In this document: positions 3,397 to 60,393 of the stretch, in pieces | Layout of the letters: each line of letters opens with the position of its first letter | Numbering within the stretch: position 1 is the stretch's first letter | IMG/VR virus record: IMGVR_UViG_3300032050_000035 | From: a virus | Lineage: Duplodnaviria > Heunggongvirae > Uroviricota > Caudoviricetes | Direction: 5' to 3' (one strand) | DNA: 64,000 nt | Made by a program: the position numbers and the translations under genes | The notes under the pieces: model-generated | The model's input: only the letters and a program-made list of their open reading frames with translations | What the model was told of the DNA's origin: nothing | Database searches by the model: none

Positions 3397-3449
3397 TTTG
3401 TAAAACCAAAGAGTATTTTACTTATATATAAATAACCGGAAATAAAATT

Positions 3450-4665: not shown

Positions 4666-4717
4666 TAAAATTGAATAAATATTTTTAATATATATATTAA
4701 AATTTTAATCTCAATAA

Positions 4718-6908: not shown

Positions 6909-6978
6909 TCTTACATTTTAACGGCATGGAAAGTTGTATGTGTAATATATACAATTATAAAAAAACTTAAAAAGTTTT

Positions 6979-31372: not shown

Positions 31373-31984
31373 ATGTTAAAAATTAAAACTTATAACCAAT
31401 TTAATTCGAGTGATTGGTTTGGACCTGTTAAGGTTCTAGATATAAAAGATCGTAAAGTTTATACAACTTCTGGAAATTTTGTAAATAATTCTATAAATCA
31501 AATAAAGAAAGGTTATACATATGTTTTTAGATTGAATGGTGATATGATAGTTGATACGGGTATGTCTTGTGTCGATTTAGTTATTTTAGTTGATACTGGC
31601 TCAAATTATAAGATGTTGGCAATTCTAAGAAATAAAGATCCATTTAAAGGCAAGTGGGCTTGTCCTGGTGGGAACATTGACGAAGGTGAAGAACCAATAG
31701 ATGCTGCTATTCGTGAGTTGGAAGAAGAAACAAGTTTAAAAGTACCTAAAAGATATTTGAGATTTATTGATGTATTCAATGAACCGTGGAGAGATCCAAG
31801 AAATAAGAATTGTATTTCTTATGCTTTCTCAGTTATTTTAAGTGATATACCTGAAACATCCGCGGCTGATGATGCTGATGAATGTGATTGGATTGATGTT
31901 AGTTATAGTGGTGAAACTATTGTTGATATGGCATTTGATCATAAATCTGTTATAAAAGGTGCTATTAAAAGAATTAAAAGATAA
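31373..31984 (+). CDS. Nudix hydrolase (ADP-ribose/NAD-derivative pyrophosphatase candidate)
   Basis: Nudix box GGNIDEGEEPIDAAIRELEEETSL. Confidence 0.75.
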   Translation: MLKIKTYNQFNSSDWFGPVKVLDIKDRKVYTTSGNFVNNSINQIKKGYTYVFRLNGDMIVDTGMSCVDLVILVDTGSNYKMLAILRNKDPFKGKWACPGGNIDEGEEPIDAAIRELEEETSLKVPKRYLRFIDVFNEPWRDPRNKNCISYAFSVILSDIPETSAADDADECDWIDVSYSGETIVDMAFDHKSVIKGAIKRIKR

Positions 31985-32002: not shown

Positions 32003-33124
32003 ATGAGAAAGTATAACCAATTTATTTTAGAAAAATTAAATAATGATTTAGTCATCTTATTAGAGGGGTATTTATATTCGACATCCGAATTTCATAGAAA
32101 GATTTCCGAATTATCTAGACAATCTGGTAGAGTGGGTGATATTTCTAAAATCATTGATGAATTCTTAAATAGAAAAGCAGATCCATTTCATCAATTAAAA
32201 GATGATTCAATAACTCAAAACTTTTTTGATACTACCAATCGAGTTGATATGGTTAGTTTCACTATGAATGATAAAGTTCCTAAAGATTGGGATAATGATG
32301 AAGATCCAGATTTGCCATACACATTAGGGAGATCTGAAATGAAAATTGGTAGAGTTTTGAGATCTATTGTGTCTATGATACAAAGTTCAAAATCTATTAA
32401 TTTTAATTTAACCGATAAAGATGTTGAAGACTTTGTGAACGCATATAAATCATTAGAAATAAATGATAAATGGCAGTTTAAAATTGTTAAAGGTGATGAT
32501 ATTATCAAATATTATAACACATCTAATTACTTAAACACTAATGGGACTTTAGGAGGATCTTGTATGGGTGATGCTAGGGGTAAATTAAAACTATATGTGG
32601 AGAATGATAATAAAGTTGGTCTTTTAATTCTACACAATAAAGAAACTGATCAAATTTGTGGTCGAGCTTTAGTTTGGAAACTAAAAAAGTCACCTTGTGA
32701 TGCTAAATATTTTATGGATAGAGTTTATGTAAATAATGATTCTGATGTTATAAAGTTTAAAAATTTTGCTAATGAGAATAAATTTTTATATAAACAGAAA
32801 ATGAATAGTCATACGGAAACAAATGTTTGTTTTTTATATGATAATAAGGAATTTTTTGGCGAAATATCTGTCAAATTAGAAAAATCAAACTTCAATAAAT
32901 ATCCATTCATTGATACACTTTGTTTCTTAAAAGGTAAAAAGTTATCAAACTTACCATCTAAGAATTGTAATTGGTTACATGAAACGGATGGTGGTGATGA
33001 TCAATGTTATGAATGTGATGGTGAATGTTTCTCAAGTTACAATGGAATCTGTGATGTTTGTGGAGATGGTCACATCTTTTTGAAAAGAAAAGGAATTGAA
33101 ACTAAAATAAATAGATTAGTATGA
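32003..33124 (+). CDS. paralogous family A protein, member 2, with leader MRKYNQFILEKL and C-terminal Cys cluster
   Basis: GTLGGSCMGD, GRALVWK, FMDRVYV, YPFIDTLCF blocks; CYECDGEC...CDVCGDGH. Confidence 0.55.
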   Translation: MRKYNQFILEKLNNDLVILLEGYLYSTSEFHRKISELSRQSGRVGDISKIIDEFLNRKADPFHQLKDDSITQNFFDTTNRVDMVSFTMNDKVPKDWDNDEDPDLPYTLGRSEMKIGRVLRSIVSMIQSSKSINFNLTDKDVEDFVNAYKSLEINDKWQFKIVKGDDIIKYYNTSNYLNTNGTLGGSCMGDARGKLKLYVENDNKVGLLILHNKETDQICGRALVWKLKKSPCDAKYFMDRVYVNNDSDVIKFKNFANENKFLYKQKMNSHTETNVCFLYDNKEFFGEISVKLEKSNFNKYPFIDTLCFLKGKKLSNLPSKNCNWLHETDGGDDQCYECDGECFSSYNGICDVCGDGHIFLKRKGIETKINRLV

Positions 33125-34098
33125 GATATATAAAAGAATTTTTCAATTACATAAAAGAAGAATGGTCAAAGAATGAACCAATTCCAGAAATATTAGATAA
33201 AGAAAAAGGATTAGCTGTTTTCCTAATCGGTGCTCCCGGTATTGGAAAGTGCTTAGAATATAATACACCCATTTTAGTGAATAATAAAATGACTAAAATT
33301 GGTAAATTGATAGATAACTATAACACCGAATCAAAAATTGGTGAAATAAATATTCCTGTTAAAAACTTATATGTTAAATCATTAAATGATAGTGGTGAGT
33401 TTGTGGAAAATGAGATTTCGAGTTTATATAGAGGCTATTCAGAAAAGTTAATAAATATAAAAACACAAACGGGTGTTGATATAAAAGTTACACCTATACA
33501 CCCATTATTAGTTTTAGAAAAAAACGGTGATATTATTTGGAAAAAATCATCAGAAATAACAATAGATGATAAGTTAGCCAGACCTAGAATAATAAATAAC
33601 ACTTTTAATAATAAATCAAAAATAAGTAATGAATTATCAAGGATTATTGGTTATTCGTTAAGTGATGGTAATTTTATAAAAAATAAAAATAGTAAATTTC
33701 TAACACTAACAAATATAGATATTGATATAATAGATGATTTTAGAAAATGTGTCGAAAAAGAAAATAAAATATTAACAGTAAAATCTAAAAAAATAAGACA
33801 TAGTGTTCAATATTCAGATGATATTAAATTAGGAAATCGAAGATTTAAAAAAGATAAATATGATTTTATTTCAAATATTTCTGAAATATGTGGTGATTAT
33901 ATTTTTGGCAACAAATCACATAAAGTTAGAATTCCGGATGATATAATATCAAACAGTGAATCATTAAAACATTTCTTAGGTAGTTATTTATCTTGTGATG
34001 GTTCTGTATTTGAAAATAGAGTTGAATATTACACATCGTCATATGAAATGGCTACTGATTTATCTTATGCACTTTTAATGTTTAATTTATTATTATAA
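33121..34098 (+). pseudogene. P-loop kinase gene interrupted by an intein, part 1: N-extein (aa 1-43) plus the intein N-terminal splicing region and LAGLIDADG endonuclease domain; ends at an in-frame TAA
   Basis: Walker A GAPGIGK is followed directly by CLEYNTPILV (intein block A); two LAGLIDADG-like blocks IIGYSLSDGNF and FLGSYLSCDGSVF; TAA at 34096-34098 in the same frame as the downstream ORF. Confidence 0.6.
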
Positions 34099-34572
34099 AT
34101 TAATTCCACCATGTCATCATTTGGTATAAATCCACCAATATTTGTATTAGTTTTTTCAATTGGTTTAATTTTTTTTCTACTACATCTAATATATTTATTT
34201 AATATTTCTCCAAATAAATTAAAATCATCACTTGTTACCCTGACTATATATGATAAAAAATCCTTATTATTTAAATTTGTTTTTTTATTTTTTATTACCG
34301 AATTTATACCAGAAGATGAAACTGGATATAGATTTACTAGAAGTTATAAATATAGAAGAGTAATAACGAAAAAACGTTTTAATAAAATATGTAATTTTTT
34401 AAATGAGAATAATGTTTATATACCAGAAACATATATTAATCATCACAATAACTTATTTTTTGATAAAATAACTAATATATCAACAATAGAACATAATGAT
34501 TATGTTTATGATATAGTCTTAGATAAACATCATAACTTCATAGGTGGTAACTTACCAACAATACTACATAAT
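33250..34572 (+). mobile_element. intein with LAGLIDADG homing-endonuclease domain inserted into the Walker A motif of the host kinase; contains one in-frame stop
   Basis: starts at Cys after GIGK (33250); ends ...DYVYDIVLDKHHNFIGGNLPTILHN, then Ser (34573) resumes the P-loop as GAPGIGK-SHFVNNY. Confidence 0.7.
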
Positions 34573-35142
34573 TCACACTTTGTGAATAATTATTTACATA
34601 CAAAAAATACAAACATTAAAGACTTCTCAACTGATGATATTTCACTTCTTTACACAAAAGATCCAAATGTTTATTATAAAGGAAAAGAAAAAGAAGAAGG
34701 TGGTAGAACAAAAAATGCGTCTGAATTAAACTTAATGAAGATGAAAGGTTTTATGAAAACTGGTCAAAACTTTATCTATGATACAACCGGTGCTGGTAAA
34801 GAATATACTGATACTGGTTATGAACACATTAAGGATATATTTGATTTAGCAAGAGAGAATGGATATGAAATAGTTTTTATTCACTTATTATCTACATTAG
34901 AAACATCAATTGAACAAGATAAATTAAGATCGAGACACGTTGATCCACACTATATTAAATGGGCTTATGCCAAACAAATGGGTGGTGAAGTGGATGGTGT
35001 TAAGGTAACTGGTAATATGAAAAGATATAAGGAATTAGGACCAGATAAATATTATGTTATAACTTCTATTGATAAAAAATATAAGTTTTATAAATTAGAA
35101 GGAGATAAACTTCTTAAAAGAAAAAATGATAAATGGGTTTAA
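34111..35142 (+). pseudogene. intein-interrupted kinase gene, part 2: intein C-terminal splicing region plus the C-extein P-loop kinase body
   Basis: same frame as 33121 (offset 990 nt); blocks F/G VYDIVLDKHHNF...ILHN-S; the C-extein SHFVNNY... completes the Walker A. Confidence 0.6.
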
Positions 35143-39300: not shown

Positions 39301-39705
39301 TTATTTACATTTTTTTAAAATTTCTTTACAAGTTTCTAACCATTCAAAATGTTCAACATTTACCGGTTTACAAGGATCACCACTTCTAATAATAGCCCAT
39401 AATTCATCCGGATCATCATCTAAATGAAAAATAAAGTTTTTACCTTCTAAAAACTCAATCTTATCAACGTGTTCTGTAAATTGTATTCTTTCTCTTGGAA
39501 TACCAACCAATTCAGCAACATCATATAACTCTTGATTTTGTTTTTCAACCCACCACCAACCCTTGGCTAAAGCTGGTTCAGTAGCACATCGACTTGTTAC
39601 AATCCAAACTTCATAACCTTCATTTACTAGTTTGGTTGCGTATTCTTGTACATCTTTACGTGACATAGTGCTATCAAAATCCATAGATATTTTATTTCTC
39701 TTCAT
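39301..39705 (-). CDS. HAD-superfamily phosphatase-like protein (start chosen at internal Met to limit overlap with the upstream GIY-YIG gene)
   Basis: MDFDSTM fits DxDxT motif I; VWIVTSR motif II; HLDDD motif IV. Confidence 0.45.
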   Translation of the reverse strand: MKRNKISMDFDSTMSRKDVQEYATKLVNEGYEVWIVTSRCATEPALAKGWWWVEKQNQELYDVAELVGIPRERIQFTEHVDKIEFLEGKNFIFHLDDDPDELWAIIRSGDPCKPVNVEHFEWLETCKEILKKCK

Positions 39706-40525
39706 ATATAATATACTTTTTATTCTCATCATTACTGTATATAACTCGATAAACTTTAGCATATGTCATGTTAGTATTTTTAACTACATCCATTATACTA
39801 TCATAGACAATATTACATTCAATATCTAAAACCTTAATACTATTAGTTGGTTTTTTTCTTTCTCTTTTTCTCCTTATTAGAATATCATCTATTTTAAGAT
39901 CGGCATTTTTAAAAATCCATATAAAGTTAAATGCACTATTACTTTTATATCTAACATTACAGGAAATGTTTTTCCTAGAAAATCCCAATTCCAATTCAAT
40001 ATCTTTAGCACTTTTCCATTCTTTGATAAAATTACCATCCAAATCATATTGCAATATTGGTTTTTTTATACTCTCTGCGTTATTTTTAATCCACTCTTCA
40101 CTTTTATAAACCTTAGTCCCTCTTCTTTTTTCACTTGCTAAAATCTCTTTCTCCGTTCTTTTAGCCTTTTTCTTAGTTTCGGATATCATTTTTTTAGTTT
40201 TATCCGTATGTTTTAATCCACAAGATCCTTCACCACCAAGAGTTAAATTCATTCCAAATTTATAGTTGTATCTTCGAAAACTATTATATTCAATTATATA
40301 CTTTGTCTCCAACTCAGATAAATATTCCTCACTACAAAAATCTTCAAATAGTATCTCAAAACTATGTTTATCCCAACCATATTTAACTAATGATTTATAC
40401 AAAACTCTTTGTTTTTTACACCATAAACCTTTATAAGATCTTACTCTCTTTTCCAAATTAAAAGTTTTACCAATATAAATCCTGTTAGTTGGTGAAATTA
40501 TTTTATAAATATATCCCTTTTCCAT
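39692..40525 (-). CDS. GIY-YIG homing endonuclease (I-TevI-like)
   Basis: GYIYKIISPTNRIYIGKT...R..Y GIY-YIG core; basic C-terminal DNA-binding region. Confidence 0.75.
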   Translation of the reverse strand: MEKGYIYKIISPTNRIYIGKTFNLEKRVRSYKGLWCKKQRVLYKSLVKYGWDKHSFEILFEDFCSEEYLSELETKYIIEYNSFRRYNYKFGMNLTLGGEGSCGLKHTDKTKKMISETKKKAKRTEKEILASEKRRGTKVYKSEEWIKNNAESIKKPILQYDLDGNFIKEWKSAKDIELELGFSRKNISCNVRYKSNSAFNFIWIFKNADLKIDDILIRRKRERKKPTNSIKVLDIECNIVYDSIMDVVKNTNMTYAKVYRVIYSNDENKKYIIYEEK

Positions 40526-40615: not shown

Positions 40616-42331
40616 ATGAGTAATATTTTAAGATATGATAGTTTCCTAAACGAGAGTAAACTCAATTTACTACTTGAAGGTAATATGGTTTATAAAGATG
40701 ATTTCAAAGAAATTTTGAAGTCGGTTAATAGTCCACTTTCAAAAGAGATTTTAGATTTAGAGGGTGTTGACGTTGATGTTGATACAAACTTTATTGATAT
40801 TTCTGATGATAAAGACAACTTTATACAATTTAAATCCGATAAAAAGTCTAAAAACTCTTGTGTTATAATTGATTTTGGCGCATCATTGTCTATCTTATCA
40901 AAAGAAATATTTACATCATTTGCTAAATTATTTGAAGATCCAAGAGTCGAAAAAGGTTTTTTGAATTGGTATGAATTACTTCAAAGAAACCAAAAAGCTA
41001 CTATTACTAAACAGATAACAAGTATTGATGATTTTAATGATGAGGATGTAAAAAATAGATTAAAATGGTATCTTGATCAAGGACGTAAAATTTATCATAT
41101 AAGATTTAATAGAAGTGGTGAGAATATTGATCTTATCATTGAAGATTATGGTCTTAAAATTGGTGAGGGAGCGGTTTCCTCACAAGAAGTTAGAGTTGGA
41201 TCATTCGTTCAATCACTATTGAAGAAAGCTGGTAAAGAAGTTAAAGGAACTGAAGTTGAAGATTTTGTAACTAAGTTTTCAATTGCCACTAAAGCTAAAA
41301 AAGAAAATATATTCTCTGATTTTGAATTGGTTGAAGGTGATGATATTAAAAAGTTTTATTATGAAGGTAATTATTATCGAGGTGGTAATCATACTTTAGG
41401 AGCATCTTGTATGAGACATGCTAGATGTCAAGACTACTTAAACATATATTCTAAAAATCCTAAAAGTGTTGGATTAGTTATATTAAAATCTAAAGAAGAT
41501 CCAACTAAAATTATAGGTAGAGCTCTTCTTTGGAAAAAACCAGAATATATGCCATGGGATGGTGGTGATGATGAAGGAGTAATAACGAAATATAATTTAG
41601 TAAAACATACCGAATCAGAAGGAAAACCATTTATGGATAGAATTTATGTGAGTAATTCACCAGACCAAGAATTGTTTATTAAATACGCAATTAAAATGGG
41701 ATATGTTTATAAGAAAAATCAAAATATTTCAGAGGAAGAGTTTATGTTTAATGGTTCTGATTCAAACATCGGAACAATTAAAGTTGATTTAGAAATGAAC
41801 GGCTTTAGTAAATACCCTTATTTAGATACTCTTTGTTATTATGAATGGGATTATGGATTCTTAACAAATGAGCAAAAATTAGTAATAAATAGTAACTATT
41901 ACGAACTAAGAGAAACTGATGGTGGTAATGGAGAAGAATGTGAAAGATGTGGTGGTGATGAAAGAATTGATTGCTATGAATGTGAGGGTGATGGAAGATA
42001 TGATTGTGAAGAATGTGGTGCCTCTGGTGAAGTAGAATGTTCTAATTGTGATGGACACGGTACTCTACCTTGTGATAACTGCGAAGGAACTGGAAAAGAA
42101 GACTGTTCTAGTTGTGATGGAACTGGAGAAGATGATGAGGGAAATGAGTGTTCTTATTGTAGTGGATCAGGTAAACAAGATTGTTCTGAATGTGAGGGTG
42201 ACTGTACTAACGAATGTGATAGATGTGGTGGTGATGGTACCAGAGAGTGTGGTGATTGTGATGGTGAAGGTAGAATTTGGTGTAATCGATGTGATGGTGA
42301 TGGTAGAATTGATTGTCCAGATTGTACATAA
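40616..42331 (+). CDS. paralogous family A protein, member 3, with leader MSNILRYDSFLNES and a C-terminal array of about 9 DnaJ-type CxxCxGxG zinc-finger repeats
   Basis: HTLGASCM, GRALLWKKPE, FMDRIYV, YPYLDTLCY blocks; repeats CERCGGDERIDCYECEGDGRYDCEECGASGEVEC... Confidence 0.6.
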   Translation: MSNILRYDSFLNESKLNLLLEGNMVYKDDFKEILKSVNSPLSKEILDLEGVDVDVDTNFIDISDDKDNFIQFKSDKKSKNSCVIIDFGASLSILSKEIFTSFAKLFEDPRVEKGFLNWYELLQRNQKATITKQITSIDDFNDEDVKNRLKWYLDQGRKIYHIRFNRSGENIDLIIEDYGLKIGEGAVSSQEVRVGSFVQSLLKKAGKEVKGTEVEDFVTKFSIATKAKKENIFSDFELVEGDDIKKFYYEGNYYRGGNHTLGASCMRHARCQDYLNIYSKNPKSVGLVILKSKEDPTKIIGRALLWKKPEYMPWDGGDDEGVITKYNLVKHTESEGKPFMDRIYVSNSPDQELFIKYAIKMGYVYKKNQNISEEEFMFNGSDSNIGTIKVDLEMNGFSKYPYLDTLCYYEWDYGFLTNEQKLVINSNYYELRETDGGNGEECERCGGDERIDCYECEGDGRYDCEECGASGEVECSNCDGHGTLPCDNCEGTGKEDCSSCDGTGEDDEGNECSYCSGSGKQDCSECEGDCTNECDRCGGDGTRECGDCDGEGRIWCNRCDGDGRIDCPDCT

Positions 42332-42737: not shown

Positions 42738-42770
42738 CAAAAAACCCACTCAATTGAGTGGGTTTTTTAA
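42738..42770. terminator. bidirectional rho-independent terminator between convergent genes
   Basis: hairpin aaacccactca-att-gagtgggttt flanked by A- and T-runs; near-identical to the hairpin at 28190. Confidence 0.7.
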
Positions 42771-42816: not shown

Positions 42817-44397
42817 TTAAACTAATTCAGGTTGTTCTTTAGAAACAAGATCCTCTAACTTCCCACGTATGATGGTCAAAGTCGTTTCGTTATAGAACTT
42901 ACCATCTTTGAAGATAACTTTCAGCTCATTATCTTCCGAGTTAACATCATCCCAAGTACATTTATCAATTAATGTAAACTCACCATCAACTTTAACTACT
43001 TTTAGTAATCCAGTTGCTGATTTTTTAGTACCATCATCAGTGATAGGGTCTTTAAAGATGTTGATACCTTCAACATCACCATCAACTTCAATTTCGATGT
43101 AGGTTGCTTTTTGAGCCATACCATGTGTATCGCGTGTTACCATCTGAAGTGAATAGGATCCCACACCGAGAACGATGTTTGTTGTTGCAAATCCTTTAGC
43201 TGATAATCTTTCATAAATACTCTCAGCTCTCTTATAGTTAATAGAGTCACCATAGATAGCACCAATGTGTGAGTCTAATTTTTTATATCCGGTTGATGTT
43301 TCAGTACCACCAAAGATATCCCATAATAACTCGATAACACCTTTATATTGAGGTTGTTTGTATCTTTCATTATAAGAAGACATATCTGGAGTTATGCTAC
43401 CACAAATAATATCTACTGGATCACCAGAGTCAGGACGGATAACAAGTTTGCCATCTCTTGCTAAAATTTCATCTTTTAATATTTGACAGTACTCCGTAAT
43501 AACTCTCCATAAATCCCAAGTATCAGATACTAATGACAATATTCCAGTTGGAAAAGTTCTTAATAAATACCTAAATGTCTCAACTTCAAAGTTACCAACC
43601 TTATCCCAAGAACCATCTTTAGTCTTAATGAAAAATCCAGTCAATGAACACATAATAGCATGTTCAGATGCGATAACAGAGTTGATACAAACATCTTTTT
43701 CATCATAATACATTCTAGCAGCTGGTATAACAGGTAGTGTATCTGAACCTCTCGAACAAGTAGCAAATCCTAAACCACTATTAACAATAGCTGATTTACC
43801 ACCCATACCTCTCATTGAGAAATCATGATTTTGATAGTCAACAAACCACAAACTCTCCGGATCTGTTTTTGTGATCCACTTTGTTGATAACTCTCTTAAT
43901 GCGAATGATAGCGTCGCTGAAGTTGGTGCTTGCCAAGATTCAGCAGAATTAATAGTTTCTAAGTAATTAACTATCCAGTCAAAAACTTGACCATTTAAAG
44001 GTTTAGTATTAACGATAGTCGATAATGGTATTTTATACGGAATTCTCTCACCTTCAGTGATTGCTCTAAACTCAATCGGAAGATATCCCAATTTATGTAG
44101 TTCTTTGAAGTGAGTAACATCAAAAGGATCACTCAGCATTAACATATCTGTTAAATCCTTCCCAAATTGATCGATTTCTTCAATTGGTCTTTGAAAAAAG
44201 TTAACATCCCAATCTTGTTTCATTTTTCTCACCATCATTTGTTGACCAAACGAAACAATTTTACCATTATTTGGACAATTGCTATATTTACCACTCCTTG
44301 GTGTAAAATTTGATTGCATCAAAACACTACCCACTGGTAGCATTGGTTTGTGTCCTGTTTTATACACATCGGTATAATAAATTTCTAAAAAGTTCAT
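42817..44397 (-). CDS. nadV: nicotinamide phosphoribosyltransferase family enzyme (NAMPT/NadV, or the Namat-type variant)
   Basis: HDFSMRGMGG, RPDSGDPVD and IFKDPITDDGTKKSATGLLKV match conserved NAMPT blocks. Confidence 0.85.
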   Translation of the reverse strand: MNFLEIYYTDVYKTGHKPMLPVGSVLMQSNFTPRSGKYSNCPNNGKIVSFGQQMMVRKMKQDWDVNFFQRPIEEIDQFGKDLTDMLMLSDPFDVTHFKELHKLGYLPIEFRAITEGERIPYKIPLSTIVNTKPLNGQVFDWIVNYLETINSAESWQAPTSATLSFALRELSTKWITKTDPESLWFVDYQNHDFSMRGMGGKSAIVNSGLGFATCSRGSDTLPVIPAARMYYDEKDVCINSVIASEHAIMCSLTGFFIKTKDGSWDKVGNFEVETFRYLLRTFPTGILSLVSDTWDLWRVITEYCQILKDEILARDGKLVIRPDSGDPVDIICGSITPDMSSYNERYKQPQYKGVIELLWDIFGGTETSTGYKKLDSHIGAIYGDSINYKRAESIYERLSAKGFATTNIVLGVGSYSLQMVTRDTHGMAQKATYIEIEVDGDVEGINIFKDPITDDGTKKSATGLLKVVKVDGEFTLIDKCTWDDVNSEDNELKVIFKDGKFYNETTLTIIRGKLEDLVSKEQPELV

Positions 44398-44432
44398 AGT
44401 TTTTATTTTTTATAAAGATAATAATTATTCTA

Positions 44433-45416
44433 TTATTCCAAAACATTTTTGTTGAAAATTTCAGTACTCCATTTTTTATAAACTCTACTATCTATATTAT
44501 CATTTAATATTTTACTCTCCATGATATATGATTCATATAAAGACATTTCCTTTTCAAATAAAATCTCAACATCTTTTATAAAACCTTTAGATTTACTCTT
44601 CAATGACTTTATTCTACTTTCAACCGAAACTGTTGTTATTCCTATTTTATAATAATCACCATTATTTATTCTCAAATAATATAATTTAGATTTTTTATCC
44701 TTTAATTCTGGTTTATCTTCAAATAATTTCTCAGTGTAACCACCAACTAAAATATTATTAAAAACCATATTCTTAATTTTACACTCAAAACAATATTGAC
44801 CGCTTTGGTGTTTTTGAACACTCTTAACAAATAGCCCATGATCCGGACAAATTATATCTATTTTCGACCTCTTGTTAATATAAGTATCTCTATTATATTC
44901 AGGATAAATATATTTATCATTATAAATATTTGATAATTTTTCTATAACATCATCATAGGTTTGTGTTTTATTGAGTACTCTATTATCATTAGCACATAAT
45001 TTACACCCATAGGTGTTATTACTTAATAAATGTATATTCGGTTTTGTATAAAAATCACCATGTTCTGAACAAGTTATTTTTATATAATCACCAACAAACC
45101 CATTGTAGTTTGATAAATCGTATTTGAATTTATCACCAAACTTCTCATAACATCTACCCAAGAACTCATCTTTTGAAATGATATTTGGACCCTTTACATA
45201 ATCTCTTTTTATTTTCTTTTTTTCAATTTCCCAACATAATTTACATCCATATTTTGAACGTAAATGCTTATCAGGTGTTTGAAAAAAATCTTTATGTACT
45301 GGGCATATGATTATAGATTTAGTTTTAGCATTCACATAATTAAACTTACTATAATCAAATTTATTACCAAATTTAACTATCGATTTTTTTATAAATTCTT
45401 CTAACATAAGTATCAC
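44433..45416 (-). CDS. T5orf172/GIY-YIG-like domain protein with three zinc-ribbon-like repeats (homing-endonuclease-like)
   Basis: three repeats C..H(K/G).F...P..HL....GC..C; C-terminal LYYLRINNGDYYKIGITTVSVESRIKSL resembles T5orf172. Confidence 0.4.
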   Translation of the reverse strand: MILMLEEFIKKSIVKFGNKFDYSKFNYVNAKTKSIIICPVHKDFFQTPDKHLRSKYGCKLCWEIEKKKIKRDYVKGPNIISKDEFLGRCYEKFGDKFKYDLSNYNGFVGDYIKITCSEHGDFYTKPNIHLLSNNTYGCKLCANDNRVLNKTQTYDDVIEKLSNIYNDKYIYPEYNRDTYINKRSKIDIICPDHGLFVKSVQKHQSGQYCFECKIKNMVFNNILVGGYTEKLFEDKPELKDKKSKLYYLRINNGDYYKIGITTVSVESRIKSLKSKSKGFIKDVEILFEKEMSLYESYIMESKILNDNIDSRVYKKWSTEIFNKNVLE

Positions 45417-45452
45417 TTCTTTTATACTTATATATATAAGAACCTATTACCT

Positions 45453-46310
45453 CTAAAATAATTTAGATTTCCAGTCTTTATTTTCTTCAATAAGAGATAT
45501 TTTTTGTAGATAATCAACTACTAATTCATAATCATTAACATCATTATCACCAGTGTAGTTCCATTCTACTTCATTCAACCAAGTAGAAGCTTGATCTTTT
45601 TCTAAGTTATATCTCCAAGAAATTTCATTTGAATAGAAATCATGTAATGATGGGTTTTTAATCTCATTTGCGACACCACCAACGACTTTCATAACTTCTC
45701 TTAACAAATCTTTGTGTTGTTCATAGATCTCGTTTCTAACAGCAACTACGAAACAGGGCCAAGGTGTTACAACTTCACCGATACATTTACATTTCTCTGC
45801 TTTAACAAATGGATAAGTTGTAAACTTTTCCCATAAGAAAACATCAGACTGCCCATTCTCTAAAGCCCATAAACCACCATAAACATCACCAACAACTTCA
45901 AACTTTAAATCATCGGTATTCCAACCTCTTTGAAATGAGTTTACATAAGCCATTAAGTGTGAACCAGAACCTTCTCTTGAGATAGCAAATGTTTTACCTT
46001 TGATATCATCAGAAGTTTTCATTTCTGAATTAAAAGGTACGTGAATACCCCATCGTAATGGACTTTTAACATAAACTGTTAATATTTTGGCATCCAAACC
46101 ATCTAAAATTGCTTTTGTAATTCCTTCAGTAAGAAGAACTGCGATGTCAATTGAACCTGCTTGTAAACCTTTAATCATTTGACCAGTACCACCAGTCATA
46201 TCAGACCAGTGTAGATTTACATCTAAATCATTTAATCTTCCTTCTTCAATGGCTAAACGCCAAGGTAAGTTGAAGTGTTCGGGAACACCTCCTATTTTAA
46301 AGTTTTTCAT
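45453..46310 (-). CDS. periplasmic-binding-protein-fold protein (NMT1/THI5 or SsuA-like), cytoplasmic (no signal peptide)
   Basis: overall PBP type 2 pattern G.DIAVLLTEG...GKTFAISREGSGSHLM; no N-terminal signal. Confidence 0.4.
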   Translation of the reverse strand: MKNFKIGGVPEHFNLPWRLAIEEGRLNDLDVNLHWSDMTGGTGQMIKGLQAGSIDIAVLLTEGITKAILDGLDAKILTVYVKSPLRWGIHVPFNSEMKTSDDIKGKTFAISREGSGSHLMAYVNSFQRGWNTDDLKFEVVGDVYGGLWALENGQSDVFLWEKFTTYPFVKAEKCKCIGEVVTPWPCFVVAVRNEIYEQHKDLLREVMKVVGGVANEIKNPSLHDFYSNEISWRYNLEKDQASTWLNEVEWNYTGDNDVNDYELVVDYLQKISLIEENKDWKSKLF

Positions 46311-46315
46311 ATCTT

Positions 46316-47089
46316 TTATATAATACTTTTATAATCAATCAATTCTAAATTATTTAGAACATAATAGTCATACTTACTATTAGTAGTAAATATCTTATCA
46401 TAACACTCAAGACTTGTATTTGGATCTTGAATAGTCATATGACTAACTGCTAAGTATATCTTACCAACATTTCTCTCCTTTAACATATTCAATAGACCTA
46501 TAAATGTACCACCCTTTACACATAAATCATCCAATACTAATATATCTCTACCACCAAAATCAGAACAATCAATAACTTGCTTCAAATCATGTGTTTTTAA
46601 ATCTCTAGACTTACTAGCACAATAAACATCACCATTAAATCCTATTTTATCAACTAATTTATTTATCCATTTAAATGAACCAGCATCTGTTGAAAATAAT
46701 ATTGGATTAGAATCAATTCTACTTAAAACACTTGATATAAATTTAGAATTATCAACAACTCTAATATTATTCAATCCCATTTGAGTGGAATCAGAATGTG
46801 GATGGAAAACATAAACTTTACTAAAATTACATGAGTTGATAAAGTCACAAACTATCTTTAGTTCAAATGATTGATTATCAAAAAATCTACGGTCATGTTG
46901 CTGTTGAAACATACATGGTATAAATAACTCAACATCTTTAATTCCATTAAAATCACAAACCTCTTTGATGGATTTTATGAAAAAAAGGTCCTCATATGAA
47001 TTTATTCTTTCGGTTATTATAGGTTCACTAAAATCCTCTACTTCAACATAAAAGCTACCATCCGGATATTTCTTTTTTAAATATTTCAT
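46316..47089 (-). CDS. ribose-phosphate pyrophosphokinase (Prs)-family enzyme, shorter than canonical Prs; PRPP synthetase or ADP-ribose pyrophosphokinase-like
   Basis: IPCMFQQQHDRRF aligns with the Prs PYFGYARQDRK loop; PRTase type I motif ILVLDDLCVKGGT. Confidence 0.6.
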   Translation of the reverse strand: MKYLKKKYPDGSFYVEVEDFSEPIITERINSYEDLFFIKSIKEVCDFNGIKDVELFIPCMFQQQHDRRFFDNQSFELKIVCDFINSCNFSKVYVFHPHSDSTQMGLNNIRVVDNSKFISSVLSRIDSNPILFSTDAGSFKWINKLVDKIGFNGDVYCASKSRDLKTHDLKQVIDCSDFGGRDILVLDDLCVKGGTFIGLLNMLKERNVGKIYLAVSHMTIQDPNTSLECYDKIFTTNSKYDYYVLNNLELIDYKSII

Positions 47090-47874
47090 AATAATTCTTC
47101 TTTAAATAAAACTGACTCTTTTAATCTTCTCAATAATTTATACTTTATTCCTAAAACTCTACTAATCCTAAGTAAAGGAACTTTATTATACAATAAATCC
47201 TTTATCTCATCAACCCTATCTAAAATAGATCCCATCTCACATTTATCACCATGCCATCTATTATAATTAGCAGAGTCACACTCAACATTACAAATATAAC
47301 AAATTTTTTTATTTTCTTCTATACCCTTTTTTATTTTTTCAATCTCATCATTGGATAATTCTCTATTCTTATTCCAAGGTATTTTTCCCTTACCTGCTTC
47401 TGATATTTTTTTTCTATGTTCATCTGAAAAAGTTCGACCAGAATGTGATTTATTTCCAAATCTAGCTTTTATTAAATTTTTCTTCCACTCACCATCAATT
47501 ACTTTACCAATGTGTGATTTAGATGCCTTCTTCCTAGACTCTTCACTCCAAACTCTTTTTATTTGACCATCACCACCATCTGTCATATTTACTAAATTAC
47601 CTAAACCTAGATCCTTTCTACCATAAAATAAAATCAGATTTTTTTCTAGACTTTTCACATATTCATAATCATCGGTCTCACATACTATCTCAATTGAATA
47701 ATCATCATTCAATAAAGAAACTGTATTTAACCAATGTTTATTTCTCCTTTTTTTATTAAAAGCCCTACTATACTTATTATAAGTTATATCAGATTTATTT
47801 TTTGTCCCTATACCAATATAGAAAATGATATTACTATCATTTCTTATATGTTTATATAAATAATGTTTTCCCAT
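47086..47874 (-). CDS. GIY-YIG homing endonuclease
   Basis: HYLYKHIRNDSNIIFYIGIGTKNK...R.....N GIY-YIG core; basic C-terminal region with a Cys cluster; TTTTTTATATATAGATAATG promoter-like motif upstream. Confidence 0.7.
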   Translation of the reverse strand: MGKHYLYKHIRNDSNIIFYIGIGTKNKSDITYNKYSRAFNKKRRNKHWLNTVSLLNDDYSIEIVCETDDYEYVKSLEKNLILFYGRKDLGLGNLVNMTDGGDGQIKRVWSEESRKKASKSHIGKVIDGEWKKNLIKARFGNKSHSGRTFSDEHRKKISEAGKGKIPWNKNRELSNDEIEKIKKGIEENKKICYICNVECDSANYNRWHGDKCEMGSILDRVDEIKDLLYNKVPLLRISRVLGIKYKLLRRLKESVLFKEELL

Positions 47875-47912
47875 TATCTATATATAAAAAACTTACTCCC
47901 TCAGACGGGAAA

Positions 47913-48272
47913 TTATTTTAATAATTCTTTTAATTTTTTATCTCTGATTTTACCTTTTACCAATTCATCACTATGTGAGCCAACTATATCTTTGAATTTA
48001 AAAGTAACAATTAAATCTTTGTGTTCATGATTATAACTCCATCTCGCAGGAGCGAAATGTAAAGTCTGAATCTCACAATTCAAGAATACCCAAGTGTAAT
48101 GTCTTTTCATACACACCATTTTATCAATTTCCGGAAATGATTTTAAGTAATTTAAATCATCTTCAACACAATCATAAAGATGAAGTACAACAGTTCCGGC
48201 TTTTTTTAATTCTGATGCTTTCCCAAGCATATCCATGGTTTTGTATTCTCGTTCTCCTATTTTAATATTCAT
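47913..48272 (-). CDS. hypothetical protein ending ...IRDKKLKELLK
   Basis: ORF; tail related to the ELGI motif. Confidence 0.45.
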   Translation of the reverse strand: MNIKIGEREYKTMDMLGKASELKKAGTVVLHLYDCVEDDLNYLKSFPEIDKMVCMKRHYTWVFLNCEIQTLHFAPARWSYNHEHKDLIVTFKFKDIVGSHSDELVKGKIRDKKLKELLK

Positions 48273-48274
48273 AA

Positions 48275-48871
48275 TTAAAATTTTAAAATACCATCCAATC
48301 TATTACTACGATTTAATGTTTTCATACTCTTATTGATAACATCAATATTATCTTTTATTTTATCAAATATTTTCTGATTTTTATCTTCATAATATTTGAT
48401 AATATAATCCCATGCAAATATAGTAACATCTTTCTTAATTTGGTGTTTTGTTGTACTTTTTATGTATAGATGATGTTCTGTATTACCGACACCTAATTGT
48501 GTTCTACCAATTCGACAAGTTGAAAATTCAACTTGTTTACCATCGTAACAATTTAATGAAATATACATACAATATTCACCATCATGTGACTCAATCAAAA
48601 CCGTCCAATATGAATAAGTATCCGTACAATAATCATCATCAATCTTTACCTTCCAGTTTTCTAACTTTATGTTCTCCATAAAATTATAAAATGTTTTATA
48701 ATCAGGTTCGATATCTTCATATTGAGGCTCTTCAGGTATATTAGCAACTATCTTAACATCTTTATACTTTTCAATAACCTCTTCACTTTCTTTCTTTACT
48801 TTTAATAACTCTGAATATTTCACAAATAGAAAAACTTGTGATGCTATCAATAACAATACTAAAACTATCAT
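48275..48871 (-). CDS. hypothetical membrane-anchored protein
   Basis: N-terminal transmembrane helix; ORF. Confidence 0.45.
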   Translation of the reverse strand: MIVLVLLLIASQVFLFVKYSELLKVKKESEEVIEKYKDVKIVANIPEEPQYEDIEPDYKTFYNFMENIKLENWKVKIDDDYCTDTYSYWTVLIESHDGEYCMYISLNCYDGKQVEFSTCRIGRTQLGVGNTEHHLYIKSTTKHQIKKDVTIFAWDYIIKYYEDKNQKIFDKIKDNIDVINKSMKTLNRSNRLDGILKF

Positions 48872-49119
48872 ATACCTAATTCATTTAATTTAAAATCTCT
48901 AACTATTTGATCAGAAGGTTCATTTAATAAACTTTCTAACTTTTCTATTTCTTTATTCTTTTCTTCTATTAAATCATCACATTCTTTGTCTGTTAAACCA
49001 CCACCATAAACTCTATCTATATCTTCGAAGTGCCAAAACATTTTAACAAAGTATTTTAATTCAGAAAGTTCTTTTTTGAGTTTTCGCCTTTCTACACCAG
49101 ATATTTTATACGGGCTCAT
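48868..49119 (-). CDS. small protein ending ...RDFKLNELGI
   Basis: ORF in an overlapping array; conserved C-terminal peptide. Confidence 0.45.
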   Translation of the reverse strand: MSPYKISGVERRKLKKELSELKYFVKMFWHFEDIDRVYGGGLTDKECDDLIEEKNKEIEKLESLLNEPSDQIVRDFKLNELGI

Positions 49120-49421
49120 AATAATTCATTTAATTTAATTTCTCTGATTATTTCTTTAACATCTTTTTCAAATTTTAAGTATTCAATTTCATCTTCATAA
49201 TAAGGAATAAAGAATTTATGATTTTTATCTTCTTCATATTTATAATGTGGTTGTATCATAACTAAATCATCAAGATAATCATCAATATTTTCATTTGATT
49301 CGTCATACAAGAATATATCACCATTATACCAATCCCAACCATCAGCATAAAGATAAGGTTTTATGAACTCAAATTGTTCATAGTTACATTTTAAATTTTT
49401 ATAATCAGTGAAGAATTTCAT
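49116..49421 (-). CDS. small acidic protein ending ...REIKLNELL
   Basis: ORF in an overlapping array. Confidence 0.45.
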   Translation of the reverse strand: MKFFTDYKNLKCNYEQFEFIKPYLYADGWDWYNGDIFLYDESNENIDDYLDDLVMIQPHYKYEEDKNHKFFIPYYEDEIEYLKFEKDVKEIIREIKLNELL

Positions 49422-49657
49422 TAGTCTAAAATTGATTCTAATTTTTTATCACGATATTCTTCAACAGTGAGAAAATCACGTCTATAATACTCACCAAGAT
49501 AGTTATTACCATCAAATATCTTATACATATAAACAATACCATATGAAAAACCTAAAGAAACCTCATTGGTTTTAGCGTTGTATTGTTTATTCAATTCTAA
49601 CTTTTTATTTCTTGTATAAGAAATATCTGGTTCATTTATACAAATTACTTTTATCAT
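49421..49657 (-). CDS. small protein ending ...RDKKLESILD
   Basis: ORF in an overlapping array. Confidence 0.4.
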   Translation of the reverse strand: MIKVICINEPDISYTRNKKLELNKQYNAKTNEVSLGFSYGIVYMYKIFDGNNYLGEYYRRDFLTVEEYRDKKLESILD

Positions 49658-49872
49658 TTTATTCCAATTTTTCTTAACTGACTATCTCTCCATTCATCAA
49701 TTTTAATAAAGAAACCAGGTTGATAAACCTCTGATATCATACCATTATCATCTTTTATTAAAATACAATCAAGATCAGCAAATTTATTTAAAATCTCGGT
49801 ATATTTTTTACCAACAGTTAGTCTATGTTCATTAGCAGTATTGTCAACACAAACCCAAATAATTCCAATCAT
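49654..49872 (-). CDS. small protein ending ...RDSQLRKIGIK
   Basis: ORF in an overlapping array. Confidence 0.4.
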   Translation of the reverse strand: MIGIIWVCVDNTANEHRLTVGKKYTEILNKFADLDCILIKDDNGMISEVYQPGFFIKIDEWRDSQLRKIGIK

Positions 49873-50126
49873 ATACCCAACTCTTTTAACAATTCGTCTC
49901 TCATTTCAGACTTATTTAATGGTCTCATAATATCATCACTATAATTACCCTCTACACCATCTTCATTAGTGACTTTATAGAAAGGTCCACTATAATCATC
50001 ATATCTTCTCGAAACAAATGGTACGTGACCAGTTGATATAACATTATATACTTTACCAACTACTAAAGGGTAGGTACTAACTGACCCACCCCATCTCTTT
50101 TGATTGGAAATACATTTAACTTTCAT
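49869..50126 (-). CDS. small protein ending ...RDELLKELGI
   Basis: ORF; conserved C-terminal peptide. Confidence 0.45.
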   Translation of the reverse strand: MKVKCISNQKRWGGSVSTYPLVVGKVYNVISTGHVPFVSRRYDDYSGPFYKVTNEDGVEGNYSDDIMRPLNKSEMRDELLKELGI

Positions 50127-50148
50127 GTAACATCATGATATTAATTAT

Positions 50149-50358
50149 CTATTTTGAGGATTTCTCAAATAGTCCTAAATTACATCTATTATCTACTTCT
50201 TTTAAAGTTTCAAAATTTCTACAAGAAATAACTTTACTTTTAAATTTCACCCAGAAAAAATTATACTTTTGATAAACAATATATTCATCATCAACTTTTT
50301 CATAAAATACTTTTATATCACTAAAGCCGTTGTTCAATATTTTGTTTATTTTTTCCAT
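50149..50358 (-). CDS. hypothetical small protein
   Basis: ORF. Confidence 0.35.
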   Translation of the reverse strand: MEKINKILNNGFSDIKVFYEKVDDEYIVYQKYNFFWVKFKSKVISCRNFETLKEVDNRCNLGLFEKSSK

Positions 50359-50381
50359 ATAACAAAGATATGGAAAATAAA

Positions 50382-50978
50382 CTATATTCCGAGTTCTTTT
50401 AATTTAATATCTCTTAATTCACTAAGAAAAATTTTATTATCTTCATCTGTGATCCACGATTGAACATCAATATGATCCCAATAAAAAACTTTTTTTGTAT
50501 TTGATACTTCTGGTTTATAATTTCCTAAACCTAAGAATCTATTATACCCATATTTTTTCTCAAATGTAACAATCTTTACTACTTTATTATCTTCATGTAT
50601 ATAAAGTTTTATATAAGGTTCAAATACTAGTTCCGGTCTTGGTAGAGATGTTTTAATTTCGGAAATAGATGTCATGTTTGGTTTATCAAATTCAGAATTA
50701 GACATTATAATCATCTTATAACACTCTCTCCATCTAATATCAAATGACCAAGCATCACCTGGTGGTCTACCATTTTCATGCACTTTACAGTTACACCAAT
50801 GTTTAACAGTTCGAAACTCAGCATTTTCATGATCTACTATTCCAATACCATTACAACTTTTACATACATTGTTAAGAGCTTTTTCTACCTTGCGTTCTAT
50901 TTCTTTTTCCTCAATTATTTCTTTTTGTTTCTCAACTTTTTCTAAAAAGTAATTGTAAAGTCTTTTAAAGATATTCAT
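50382..50978 (-). CDS. Cys-rich protein ending ...RDIKLKELGI (start set at internal Met 50978; the track start 51020 lies inside a terminator hairpin)
   Basis: ORF; CKSCNGIG...C.C cluster; conserved C-terminal peptide. Confidence 0.45.
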   Translation of the reverse strand: MNIFKRLYNYFLEKVEKQKEIIEEKEIERKVEKALNNVCKSCNGIGIVDHENAEFRTVKHWCNCKVHENGRPPGDAWSFDIRWRECYKMIIMSNSEFDKPNMTSISEIKTSLPRPELVFEPYIKLYIHEDNKVVKIVTFEKKYGYNRFLGLGNYKPEVSNTKKVFYWDHIDVQSWITDEDNKIFLSELRDIKLKELGI

Positions 50979-50993
50979 ATTTATTATAAATAA

Positions 50994-51023
50994 AAATGAG
51001 TCACCATTTAGGTGACTCATTTA
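50994..51023 (-). terminator. hairpin terminator downstream of the SPFH gene
   Basis: inverted repeat aaatgagtcacc-attta-ggtgactcattt followed by a T-run on the minus strand. Confidence 0.5.
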
Positions 51024-59961: not shown

Positions 59962-60393
59962 ATGAAATATCTAAAACTATTTGAAAAATTCACTATTGAA
60001 GAACTCATTGAAAATAATAAAAAGGCTAATGAAATACTAGAAGATATTAAAAGTATATCATATATCATAGAAGATGAGGGATTTGATATTCAATATACCT
60101 TTCAATTCAGTAAAGATTGGAAACAATCATTTATAAATGTTGATGATTATAACACATCAAGAGATGCTGGTAGAGCTAGAAAAAAGATAAATGGAATTTC
60201 TTTAGTTATTCACAAAAATTCGATTGAGACATCTAAAAAAACTAGACTTGATTTTTCACCTTCTGATAATGAAATACTTAATAATTTTATTGTTCTTCTG
60301 AAAGAACACTTAGATTATATAGATGGAAAATCTATTCTAAGTGGGCGCGGTAATTTTAATAATTCAATGAGTATTTTAATTCAATTTGGTTAA
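59962..60393 (+). CDS. hypothetical protein with leader MKYLKLFEKFTIEEL
   Basis: ORF; leader motif. Confidence 0.5.
   Translation: MKYLKLFEKFTIEELIENNKKANEILEDIKSISYIIEDEGFDIQYTFQFSKDWKQSFINVDDYNTSRDAGRARKKINGISLVIHKNSIETSKKTRLDFSPSDNEILNNFIVLLKEHLDYIDGKSILSGRGNFNNSMSILIQFG

Follow-up and report, generated by a model that had tools for sequence, protein, structure and literature searches.

A predicted NARP1-type NAD+ restoration locus of an environmental phage with a recruited Ca3427-family gene between its two enzyme genes

Few modes of bacterial immunity against viruses are more common than the depletion of NAD+, for which NARP1 is the main phage countermeasure known. This pathway consists of Adps, which uses ATP to convert ADP-ribose (ADPR) into its pyrophosphorylated form (ADPR-PP), and Namat, which joins ADPR-PP and nicotinamide into NAD+ (10.1101/2024.02.11.579819). 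A second pathway, NARP2, is composed of Nampt and NMNAT (10.1101/2024.02.11.579819). Osterman et al. reported that 97% of the genes of the Adps clade adjoin Namat and found no phage with both pathways (10.1101/2024.02.11.579819). In NARP3, a PnuC-like transporter is associated with a NadR-like enzyme, which means that an enzyme can have a component for precursor acquisition as its partner (PMC13464706). Some NARP1 operons include third genes with experimentally proven feeder roles. One of them, NARP1-AP, has the order Adps-Adpp-Namat, where Adpp is a Macro-domain ADPR-1''-phosphate phosphatase (10.64898/2026.01.28.702374), and another gene, RyDEP, lies inside the NARP1 of mycobacteriophages (10.64898/2026.05.28.727677). 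These inserted genes widen the range of defences that the pathway beats. Here, we analysed a set of five minus-strand genes (positions 42817 to 47874) in a stretch of 64,000 nucleotides of a tailed phage, IMG/VR record IMGVR_UViG_3300032050_000035, hereafter called the window. Two of the genes are predicted to encode Adps and Namat. Between them lies a gene for a protein with a periplasmic-binding-protein (PBP) fold, hereafter called PBP, which was recruited, recurs in several operon types, and has kept the pocket of the host protein unchanged. On balance, we find it somewhat probable that the locus is a NARP1-type operon that acquired the host-derived PBP as a third, lineage-restricted accessory, and that it also houses selfish endonuclease genes.

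The original prediction saw in these genes a phage NAD+ reconstitution operon, and left open whether its enzymes were Adps and Namat or a Prs and a NAMPT. It had delimited five minus-strand ORFs (open reading frames), whose coordinates are exact in the ORF listing, and its domain assignments were confirmed by scans of Pfam, NCBIfam, and PHROG families. ORFs of 257 to 526 aa in DNA of 27.8% GC, with E-values such as those given below, are far beyond chance. We assign the Prs-like and NAMPT-like pair to NARP1, as predicted Adps and Namat of a compact-Adps lineage, because trees, profile scores, and diagnostic motifs agree and because no NMNAT was found in the window. The catalytic residues are intact and neither protein groups with host housekeeping enzymes, and the substrate specificities are those expected from homology.

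The predicted Adps (46316-47089, minus strand) has 257 aa, i.e., 58 fewer than the Prs of Escherichia coli (315 aa), which agrees with the earlier remark that it is about 60 aa shorter than canonical Prs. It matches phrog_619 (6e-43, 148 bits), and it is far under the cut-off of all nine NCBIfam Prs models, the best of which is TIGR01251 (67.9 bits for a cut-off of 113). A profile of Adps made without the window lineage gives 136.8 bits and a profile of the classical NARP1 Adps of four phages gives 101.8 bits, against 32.7 bits for a profile of 27 Prs sequences that include those of Flavobacteriales. Known Adps, used as controls, behave alike. In the neighbour-joining (NJ) tree, the split between Adps and Prs has a bootstrap of 1.0. 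The protein has the Adps-type motif PHSD, the phosphoribosyl loop DDLCVKGGT, and the catalytic lysine in SKSRD, which aligns with the lysine of all Adps and Prs sequences and is presumably the equivalent of K162 in the flexible loop of SpbetaL1 Adps. It is not truncated: relatives of equal size adjoin window-type Namat genes. These full-length relatives have 255 aa (68% identity, contig L192 of 623 kb) and 264 aa (63% identity, contig L191 of 228 kb), and both are next to Namat. In the window, Adps and Namat are on the same strand at a distance of 1.9 kb, with PBP and an endonuclease-like gene between them; in L192 they abut.

Contig L192 (JBINNZ010004784.1, positions 3400-8638, 28% GC) has other similarities with the window: its ClpP is 69% and its M50 peptidase 40% identical to those of the window, and its compact Adps-Namat pair lacks PBP. 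One possibility is that the window phage is a member of a group of very large phages; another is that the contig is a chimeric assembly.

The predicted Namat (42817-44397, minus strand, 526 aa) matches the NAPRTase family (2.4e-28), PRK09198 of NCBIfam (424 bits for a cut-off of 405), and phrog_448 (1.7e-156). It scores 372 bits with the structures of the SpbetaL1 Namat (PDB 9w5x and 9w5w), against 154 and 128 bits with the Nampt of Xanthomonas and human, respectively. When aligned with references of NARP1 (five) and NARP2 (three), it shares 44% identity with validated Namat and 29% with NARP2-type Nampt, and the NJ tree places it in the Namat clade with a bootstrap of 1.0, apart from the three NARP2 Nampts. 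Its matches among GenBank phages fall into two score groups. One, at about 300 to 390 bits, corresponds to NARP1 carriers, with a best match of 46% identity. The other, at 110 to 185 bits, corresponds to the NARP2-type proteins of T4-like, Caulobacter, and Sinorhizobium phages, where Nampt adjoins an NMNAT. The residues equivalent to Y15, F189, R192, D215, R306, D308, G360, D361, G390, S391, T398, R399, and D400 (SpbetaL1 numbering) are all conserved. The SCL, which is the beta1-beta2 loop (PRSGKYSNCPNNGK), has the length typical of Namat, with a Lys and then a Tyr at the stacking position as in the Bas63 type; in Namat enzymes, the third position of this loop has an Arg, Lys, or Tyr that provides the stacking residue. 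The SCL of NARP2 Nampts is about 7 residues shorter. The SCH motif, GSYSLQMVTRD, keeps the spacing, the GS, the TRD, and the Tyr at position 3, with Leu at position 5 and Met at position 7. A database search revealed that this lineage of Namat comprises 120 clusters (57-100% identity) with the motif GS[YF]SLQxVTRD. Position 7 is Y in 53 of the 120 members, F in 21, M in 18, H in 14, and G in 9. Compared with these homologs, the Met of the window protein is best seen as a natural polymorphism of the lineage, not as a defect.

Some points weigh against the assignment to NARP1. The trees are based on small reference sets and on the neighbour-joining method. In its group, the window Adps has diverged the most, with BLAST scores of 60 to 65 bits to validated Adps and of 62 bits to an archaeal Prs. 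Finally, the presence of Met where the published motif has Tyr or Phe (the equivalent of Tyr396), together with Leu at position 5, could make the preference for ADPR-PP weaker. One may consider a classical salvage pathway in which the Prs-like enzyme would produce phosphoribosyl pyrophosphate (PRPP) from ribose-5-phosphate, the NAMPT-like enzyme would turn it, with nicotinamide, into nicotinamide mononucleotide (NMN), and an NMNAT of the host or of the phage would complete the synthesis of NAD+, as in NARP2 or in phage KVP40. Namat enzymes do keep a PRPP-dependent synthesis of NMN in vitro (PMC12774641), and that of the window lacks an aromatic residue at one position of the clamp. The window also encodes a standalone NUDIX hydrolase (31373-31984, plus strand, 2.3e-17) that shares 32% identity with the Nudix half of the NMNAT/Nudix protein of phiN3 and that could feed this pathway by splitting ADPR into AMP and ribose-5-phosphate. 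Moreover, the 64 kb cover part of a genome that is probably much larger, and NMNAT could sit elsewhere in it. Yet, this NUDIX ORF is the sole match to the phage NMNAT/Nudix protein and has no cytidylyltransferase domain; no NMNAT was found in the 64-kb window or in 80 related IMG/VR loci. Both proteins are in NARP1 clades with maximal bootstraps, the Prs models are far under their cut-offs, the identity to Namat greatly exceeds that to NARP2-type Nampt, and the literature cited above, on the adjacency of Adps and Namat and on the lack of phages with both pathways, points the same way. We therefore regard classical salvage as very improbable. NARP3 was excluded, since no genes for PnuC or NadR are present. 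As for the NUDIX hydrolase itself, it may be an ADPR pyrophosphatase that competes with Adps or complements it.

The locus resembles the described NARP1 systems (10.1101/2024.02.11.579819; Namat structures in PMC12774641) in that Adps is followed by Namat on one strand of a phage genome, and in the features of Namat: a conserved catalytic core, a long SCL, the 11-residue spacing from GS to TRD in the SCH, and an aromatic residue at position 3. It differs from them by the compact Adps, which is only 23 to 28% identical to the classical phage Adps, by a Namat lineage with Leu at position 5 and a variable position 7 instead of the aromatic residues of the published consensus, and by three extra genes interleaved in the operon. 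It shares with NARP2 (Nampt plus NMNAT/Nudix, as in KVP40) and NARP3 the fact of being a phage pathway restoring NAD+, and differs from them by the lack of NMNAT, NadR, and PnuC, and by the low identity to NARP2 Nampts. Its binding protein is a cytoplasmic one, for which the phage encodes no transporter partner. The two enzymes are divergent additions to a known pathway, and the interleaved homing endonucleases are ordinary. The window-type Namat (62-71% identity where measured, in IMG/VR) is paired with an Adps similar to that of contig L016 in some contigs (L193, L194, L196) and with the compact Adps in others (L197, L198, L259). This means that Adps and Namat modules have been shuffled among environmental phages.

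The new result on this locus concerns PBP (45453-46310, minus strand, 285 aa). The original prediction called it a PBP-fold protein and left it unexplained. The fold is now supported by three concordant results: the match to PF22384 (Ca3427-like, 50.5 bits for a cut-off of 27, 3e-13), the match to PDB entry 2x7p (5e-27), and an AlphaFold2 (AF2) model of a type II PBP fold (pLDDT of 90.2) whose closest structure is 2x7p (TM score of 0.88), followed by SsuA, Thi5, ThiY, and TauA. In this model the first strand begins at residue 2, which leaves no room for a signal peptide and indicates a cytoplasmic protein. The source annotation as a sulfonate substrate-binding protein of an ABC importer was rejected, since there is no signal peptide, there are no importer genes nearby, and the score with TIGR01728 is 46 bits for a cut-off of 163.5. 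Relative to the Candida albicans protein CA3427 (2x7p/2x7q, PF22384), the structure-based identity is 26%. The two proteins have in common the pocket residues Glu11/His12 and a Glu/Thr pair (164/167 in CA3427), the cytoplasmic location, and the absence of a signal peptide. The structure of CA3427, published in 2011, came with the description of a family present in fungi and Bacteroidetes, and neither pyridoxal phosphate (PLP) nor amino acids could be loaded in the protein (PMC3073944). We found no later literature on the family. It is a small one: a search of 1.84 billion proteins gave 453 representatives at E<=1e-30. The PBP of the window and its kin differ from the rest of the family in being the first viral members found, and in having a defined functional context. 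A tblastn search of 50,697 GenBank phage records gave no homologs, and the known viral proteins of BFVD included no close structural relatives, just generic PBP folds with TM scores of at most 0.57.

The conserved residues of PBP give some clues on its ligand. In an alignment of 20 sequences, E11, H12, E161, T164, and T165 are invariant, and so are nine Trp and several acidic and His residues lining the protein. Two Gly-rich loops, GGTGQ and SREGSGSH, cap the N termini of helices 42-51 and 116-127, one per lobe. In proteins of the SsuA and PhnD types, such an arrangement of helix caps clamps an anion. The nearest folds bind sulfonates, phosphonates, PLP, formylaminopyrimidine (FAMP), thiamin, and pyrroloquinoline quinone (PQQ). 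Viral and bacterial proteins have an identical residue at 68 positions conserved to at least 97%, and no polar position is conserved but different. The absence of a polar specificity switch implies that the phage uses the specificity of the host protein unchanged. Some protists have fusions of the PBP domain with a class I S-adenosylmethionine (SAM) methyltransferase of the CMAS-like type (in the choanoflagellates Choanoeca flexa and Salpingoeca punica and in other sources) or with a glutathione S-transferase (GST) C-terminal domain (in Amorphochlora), examples being protein representatives P0291-P0378 and P0307. In the fusion closest to the window protein (P0243), the extension has no recognisable domain. 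The methyltransferase fusions suggest that the PBP domain may present a small metabolite to an enzyme. They do not identify the ligand.

Where is PBP found? Besides the window, 19 other metagenomic contigs of viral type, a status inferred from their gene content, have PBP between Adps and Namat. They represent about eleven lineages with differing flanks and inserts, and PBP is thus a recurrent part of this type of operon. All but one of the viral-type contigs examined have the gene between an Adps-like and a Namat-like gene. A scan of IMG/VR with a PBP profile returned one locus only, and PBP is absent from the 80 IMG/VR Namat loci (L193-L272; 0/80). The closest chromosomal homologs have at most 65% identity and are all from Flavobacteriales (Crocinitomicaceae, Fluviicola, Lishizhenia), and the host of this large, low-GC tailed phage is probably a member of this order. 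In the genome collection, at least 592 candidate stretches encode a relative of PBP. Namat was never found near bacterial copies, neither in 80 genome loci nor in about 74 bacterial-type metagenome loci. The GC content and GC3 of individual genes are uninformative on the direction of the transfer. PBP-bearing NARP1 operons are rare and apparently restricted to phages whose hosts have the gene themselves. The NARP papers we searched have no description of a Ca3427-family gene in these operons.

Several lines of evidence suggest that the association of PBP with NARP1 is more than inherited synteny. First, between the window and operons of the L016 type, the identity is 65 to 78% for PBP, 48 to 53% for Namat, and 30 to 34% for Adps. 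Second, contig L110 is a mosaic, with Adps (86%) and Namat (98%) of the L016 type and a PBP of the window type (93% identity in amino acids, 91% in nucleotides). The nucleotide similarity between L110 and the window is confined to PBP, from about 16 nt before the start codon to the stop codon. Hence, alleles of PBP have been exchanged between operon types and work with either set of enzymes, which argues against a tightly co-evolved protein complex. Third, PBP is absent from the other sampled contexts of window-type Namat. The existence of relatives of the window Adps-Namat pair without PBP implies that the window sublineage gained PBP between the genes of a pre-existing pair. Fourth, PBP is found in two other contexts related to ADPR. 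In one IMG/VR locus (L008, positions 3348-9915), the gene order is Adps, then, further on, Macro-PBP-NADAR-NDT-like-Namat, and PBP overlaps the end of the Macro-domain gene by 4 nt. This PBP has a long branch and is about equidistant from bacterial and viral sequences, which raises the question of an independent capture. In another context (L108, positions 6472-8864; also L109 and L111), a PBP that is 77% identical to that of the window follows genes encoding an Endonuclease_NS, Tad3 (PF25185, 5e-28), a 2-oxoglutarate (2OG)-Fe(II) oxygenase, and two small ORFs, so that PBP is the fourth gene downstream of Tad3. The latter is an inhibitor of type I Thoeris that binds ThsB (PMC13402655). Among the 80 IMG/VR Namat loci, NDT-like genes (PF15891) are present in 33, Macro genes in 22, and NADAR genes in 11, and several of these often occur together; the NARP papers searched contain no description of NDT-like or NADAR genes as NARP1 accessories.

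These data must be confronted with another explanation, in which PBP is a host metabolic gene unrelated to NAD+ that was captured once by an ancestor of this phage family and stays in the operon by descent and because its early expression is convenient. Its ligand would then perhaps be a lipid, onium, or sulfonate metabolite tied to an MsbA-like exporter of the host. Many observations fit this alternative and weigh against a role of PBP in the pathway. The viral proteins form one NJ clade of 59 sequences that includes no copy from a bacterial genome (the context was looked up for six sequences of fetched loci and for P0004, which has the Tad3 context), and the phages with PBP share syntenic backbone genes. 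What happened in L110 was a swap of homologous alleles and not an independent insertion, and a single ancestral insertion could explain much of the recurrence of the gene. In L108, there is no Adps within 8 kb upstream of PBP and no Namat directly downstream, on a contig that ends 375 nt past the gene. The pocket is identical to that of the host protein, and the bacterial orthologs have no link with NAD: their sole widely conserved neighbour is the MsbA-like ABC exporter (69 loci), which in Flavobacteriales (L018-L097) is immediately upstream of PBP with a gap of about 3 nt and which is lost in more distant bacteria. The groove of Ca3427 is mainly hydrophobic, and the crystal paper found no ligand and modelled an acyl chain in it (PMC3073944); the CMAS-like methyltransferase fusions could fit a lipid ligand equally well. 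Finally, the pathway does not need PBP, given that 80 of 80 other NARP1 loci lack it. Against this, PBP keeps its position between Adps and Namat even as methylase genes, homing endonuclease genes, and small ORFs come and go in the surrounding slots and as the identity of Adps falls to 30%. It is found with three different combinations of Adps and Namat types. The relatives of the window-type pair without PBP imply a separate gain at the same relative position. And where PBP is not flanked by the enzymes, its neighbours are still genes of NAD/ADPR counter-defence (Macro, NADAR, NDT-like, Tad3). We thus consider a simple hitch-hiking of PBP rather unlikely.

We also observed that in Flavobacteriales the divergently transcribed gene two positions upstream of PBP encodes either a uracil phosphoribosyltransferase (UPRTase, about 24 loci) or a canonical Prs with L25 (about 22 loci). 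The two proteins are PRPP enzymes, and this alternation, an unproven clue, may or may not be meaningful.

If PBP does take part in the restoration of NAD+, how could it act? Tentatively, and with less than even confidence, we propose that it is a genuine third component of this NARP1 variant, borrowed unchanged from a Flavobacteriales host, whose cleft would bind an NAD-derived metabolite and serve Namat. Host NADase defences (Thoeris, DSR, SIR2-HerA, SEFIR) would split NAD+ into ADPR and nicotinamide. The compact Adps would pyrophosphorylate ADPR with ATP to give ADPR-PP, and Namat would join ADPR-PP and nicotinamide into NAD+, two reactions expected from the homology of these proteins to characterised enzymes. 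The cleft between the lobes of PBP might bind a small anionic metabolite related to NAD, such as ADPR, ADPR-PP or a PRPP-like compound, or a pyridinium nucleotide (NMN or NAD+). PBP could then capture, protect, or deliver a substrate or a labile intermediate for Namat. The anionic NAD-derived ligand and the service to Namat are our best guess, motivated by the helix caps, the ligands of the nearest folds, the methyltransferase fusions, and the genomic neighbours. Such a role would be analogous in its logic to those of the feeder genes Adpp, with its Macro domain, and RyDEP. The operons of NARP1-AP and RyDEP resemble the one studied here in having a lineage-restricted third gene between or beside Adps and Namat, and in these operons the third gene extends what the pathway can use. 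They differ in the nature of this gene, which in the window encodes a Ca3427-family PBP fold, little changed from the host chromosomal copy, and not a Macro or RyR domain. The window operon has no Macro gene.

A second ADPR-processing gene is present 13 kb away from the operon (60390-61106, minus strand). It encodes a 238-aa microbial-type PARG catalytic macrodomain (PF10021, 1.1e-20). The idea that it is a displaced Adpp found no support: a single comparison with gp175 of phage Quinn, the Macro-domain gene between Adps and Namat in that phage, revealed no similarity (E of 0.038).

Two other functions of PBP would also be linked to ADPR. PBP could be an enzyme, by comparison with Thi5, MqnA, and HisG, that turns a product of NAD+ breakdown or a side product, such as an ADPR-cyclic phosphate (ADPR-cP), into a substrate of NARP1, in a step of feeding or of metabolite repair. 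ADPR-PP is known to decay to ADPR-cP (10.1101/2024.02.11.579819). The protein has unusually many invariant polar residues (E11, H12, H34, D37, E62, H90, R112, E161, K162), its closest folds include enzymes, namely Thi5 and structures deposited as "enzyme of biosynthetic pathway," and the 4-nt overlap with the Macro-domain gene in L008 would suit a sequential processing of phosphorylated ADPR species. Yet, there is no catalytic motif matching a known enzyme, the PLP cofactor of Thi5 did not bind Ca3427 (PMC3073944), and the two forms in which Ca3427 crystallised were interpreted as the open and closed states of a ligand-binding motion. An enzymatic role is therefore improbable. Alternatively, PBP could act as a sponge that sequesters a signal derived from ADPR (cyclic ADPR [cADPR] isomers, His-ADPR) or free ADPR, so that signalling of the Thoeris type would be blocked during the repair of the NAD+ pool by NARP1. 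The fold is suited to the tight capture of small molecules, with its anion-binding helix caps and many invariant Trp, and the gene lies near the Thoeris inhibitor Tad3 in L108 and among ADPR-processing genes in L008. As far as the literature cited in PMC13464706 indicates, the known phage sponges Tad1, Tad2, and Acb2 occupy similar islands. However, a binder of immune signals is not expected to have a pocket unchanged from that of a widespread bacterial chromosomal protein, and PBP has no structural relative among known viral proteins and no similarity to known sponges. This makes a sponge quite improbable.

The two remaining genes of the set encode endonuclease-like proteins, which we regard as freestanding insertions given their nuclease and DNA-binding domains and their varying presence among relatives. 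This is what the original prediction had proposed. The first of these genes (47086-47874, minus strand, 262 aa) overlaps by its stop codon the start of Adps by 4 nt. It matches NUMOD3 (9.7e-8) and the homing endonuclease families phrog_314, phrog_655, and phrog_19446 (best E-value of 7.5e-16). Its earlier classification as a GIY-YIG endonuclease holds on the basis of the motif YLYK...(x11)...FYIGIG...R...E...N, visible in the N-terminal part of the translation, and of the PHROG matches; the Pfam GIY-YIG model gives no match at E<=0.01. The second gene (44433-45416, minus strand, 327 aa, GTG start) matches T5orf172 in Pfam at 20.0 bits, exactly the cut-off of 20, and has matches to MUG113 and of the DUF723 type and to phrog_681 "endonuclease" (3e-40). 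Three repeats of the CxxH...CxxC type, similar to Zn ribbons, are visible in its sequence. In 17 of the 19 other contigs with the three genes, Namat is within about 100 nt of PBP without a gene between them. In these 19 contigs and in L190-L192, the slots occupied by the two endonuclease genes of the window are empty or contain a DNA methylase, small ORFs, or an endonuclease VII. The contig with a PBP 91% identical to that of the window (P0002) has the same order of PBP, DUF723-type gene, and large ORF. The contig L110 cannot be used to map the T5orf172 insertion site, since only its PBP resembles the window. The window has yet another GIY-YIG/NUMOD1 gene (39692-40525). These elements resemble the freestanding homing endonucleases of other phages (I-TevI, the Seg proteins, the T5orf172 family) in their domains, their insertion between conserved genes, and their varying presence. 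The first one differs in being under significance with the Pfam GIY-YIG model. Both genes are predicted to be selfish insertions that cleave DNA and have no part in the chemistry of NAD+.

The description of the locus as one operon of five genes is an approximation. The genes are tightly spaced (-4, 5, 36, and 35 nt) and are followed by a terminator-like hairpin (42738-42769, minus strand) with a 14-bp stem, 5 G-C pairs, and a T-run, 48 nt past the stop codon of Namat and between convergent genes. It is the strongest of the 8 terminator-like sites found in the region, where 1.8 were expected. Yet, the hairpin ahead of the first gene (47896-47911) is weak, and a longer, tight minus-strand run of about 15 genes, which reaches at least position 51882, has these five genes as its 3' end. 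A scan for sigma-70 promoters showed no enrichment (74 sites for 66.8 expected), with a consensus that is unsuited to promoters of the Bacteroidota type. A PADLOC scan of ten proteins of the window gave no relevant match. At the nucleotide level, no relatives were found among GenBank phages, and a megablast of the operon against phages gave no match.

The rest of the window is that of a tailed phage, with a tape-measure-like protein of 1840 aa, ClpP, a Dam methylase, and intein/LAGLIDADG elements. The latter include two adjoining ORFs (33121-35142, plus strand) with intein-splicing and LAGLIDADG domains (PF14890, PF14528), which suggests a gene containing an intein or disrupted by one and adds to the mobile elements of the window. 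Immediately upstream of the operon there is a run of small ORFs (47913-51020, minus strand), many of which have similar C-terminal ends (...KLKELGI, ...LNELGI, ...KKLKELLK). For one of them (47913-48272), which matches no family, L110 (47%) and L016 (38%) encode homologs upstream of Adps. On the other side, a plus-strand gene (40616-42331) encodes a protein of 571 aa with dense CxxC/CxxCxGxG repeats in its C-terminal 150 residues or so, resembling zinc fingers of the DnaJ type, and without matches in Pfam or PADLOC.

These results may have several implications. The locus extends NARP1 to a large and unsampled environmental lineage in which Adps is compact and the adenine clamp of Namat has a variant motif, so that this lineage offers a natural experiment for the selectivity-clamp model as published. 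A recurrent third accessory, unrelated to the known ones and in the same position, would suggest either that the two-enzyme pathway is limited in hosts of the Flavobacteriales, for instance by a loss of nicotinamide, by ADPR-PP being unstable, or by an NADase product of another kind, or that there is a new counter to ADPR-based signalling. If PBP has the role proposed here, a binding-protein type of accessory would be added to the phage counter-defences against NAD+ depletion. In that case, the orphan Ca3427 family, whose crystal structure dates from 2011 and whose members are conserved in pathogenic fungi as well as in Bacteroidota, would also obtain its first function and ligand class. Since the phage copy has kept the pocket of the host protein, the phage context gives a concrete hypothesis for the whole of this family, once proposed as an antifungal target.

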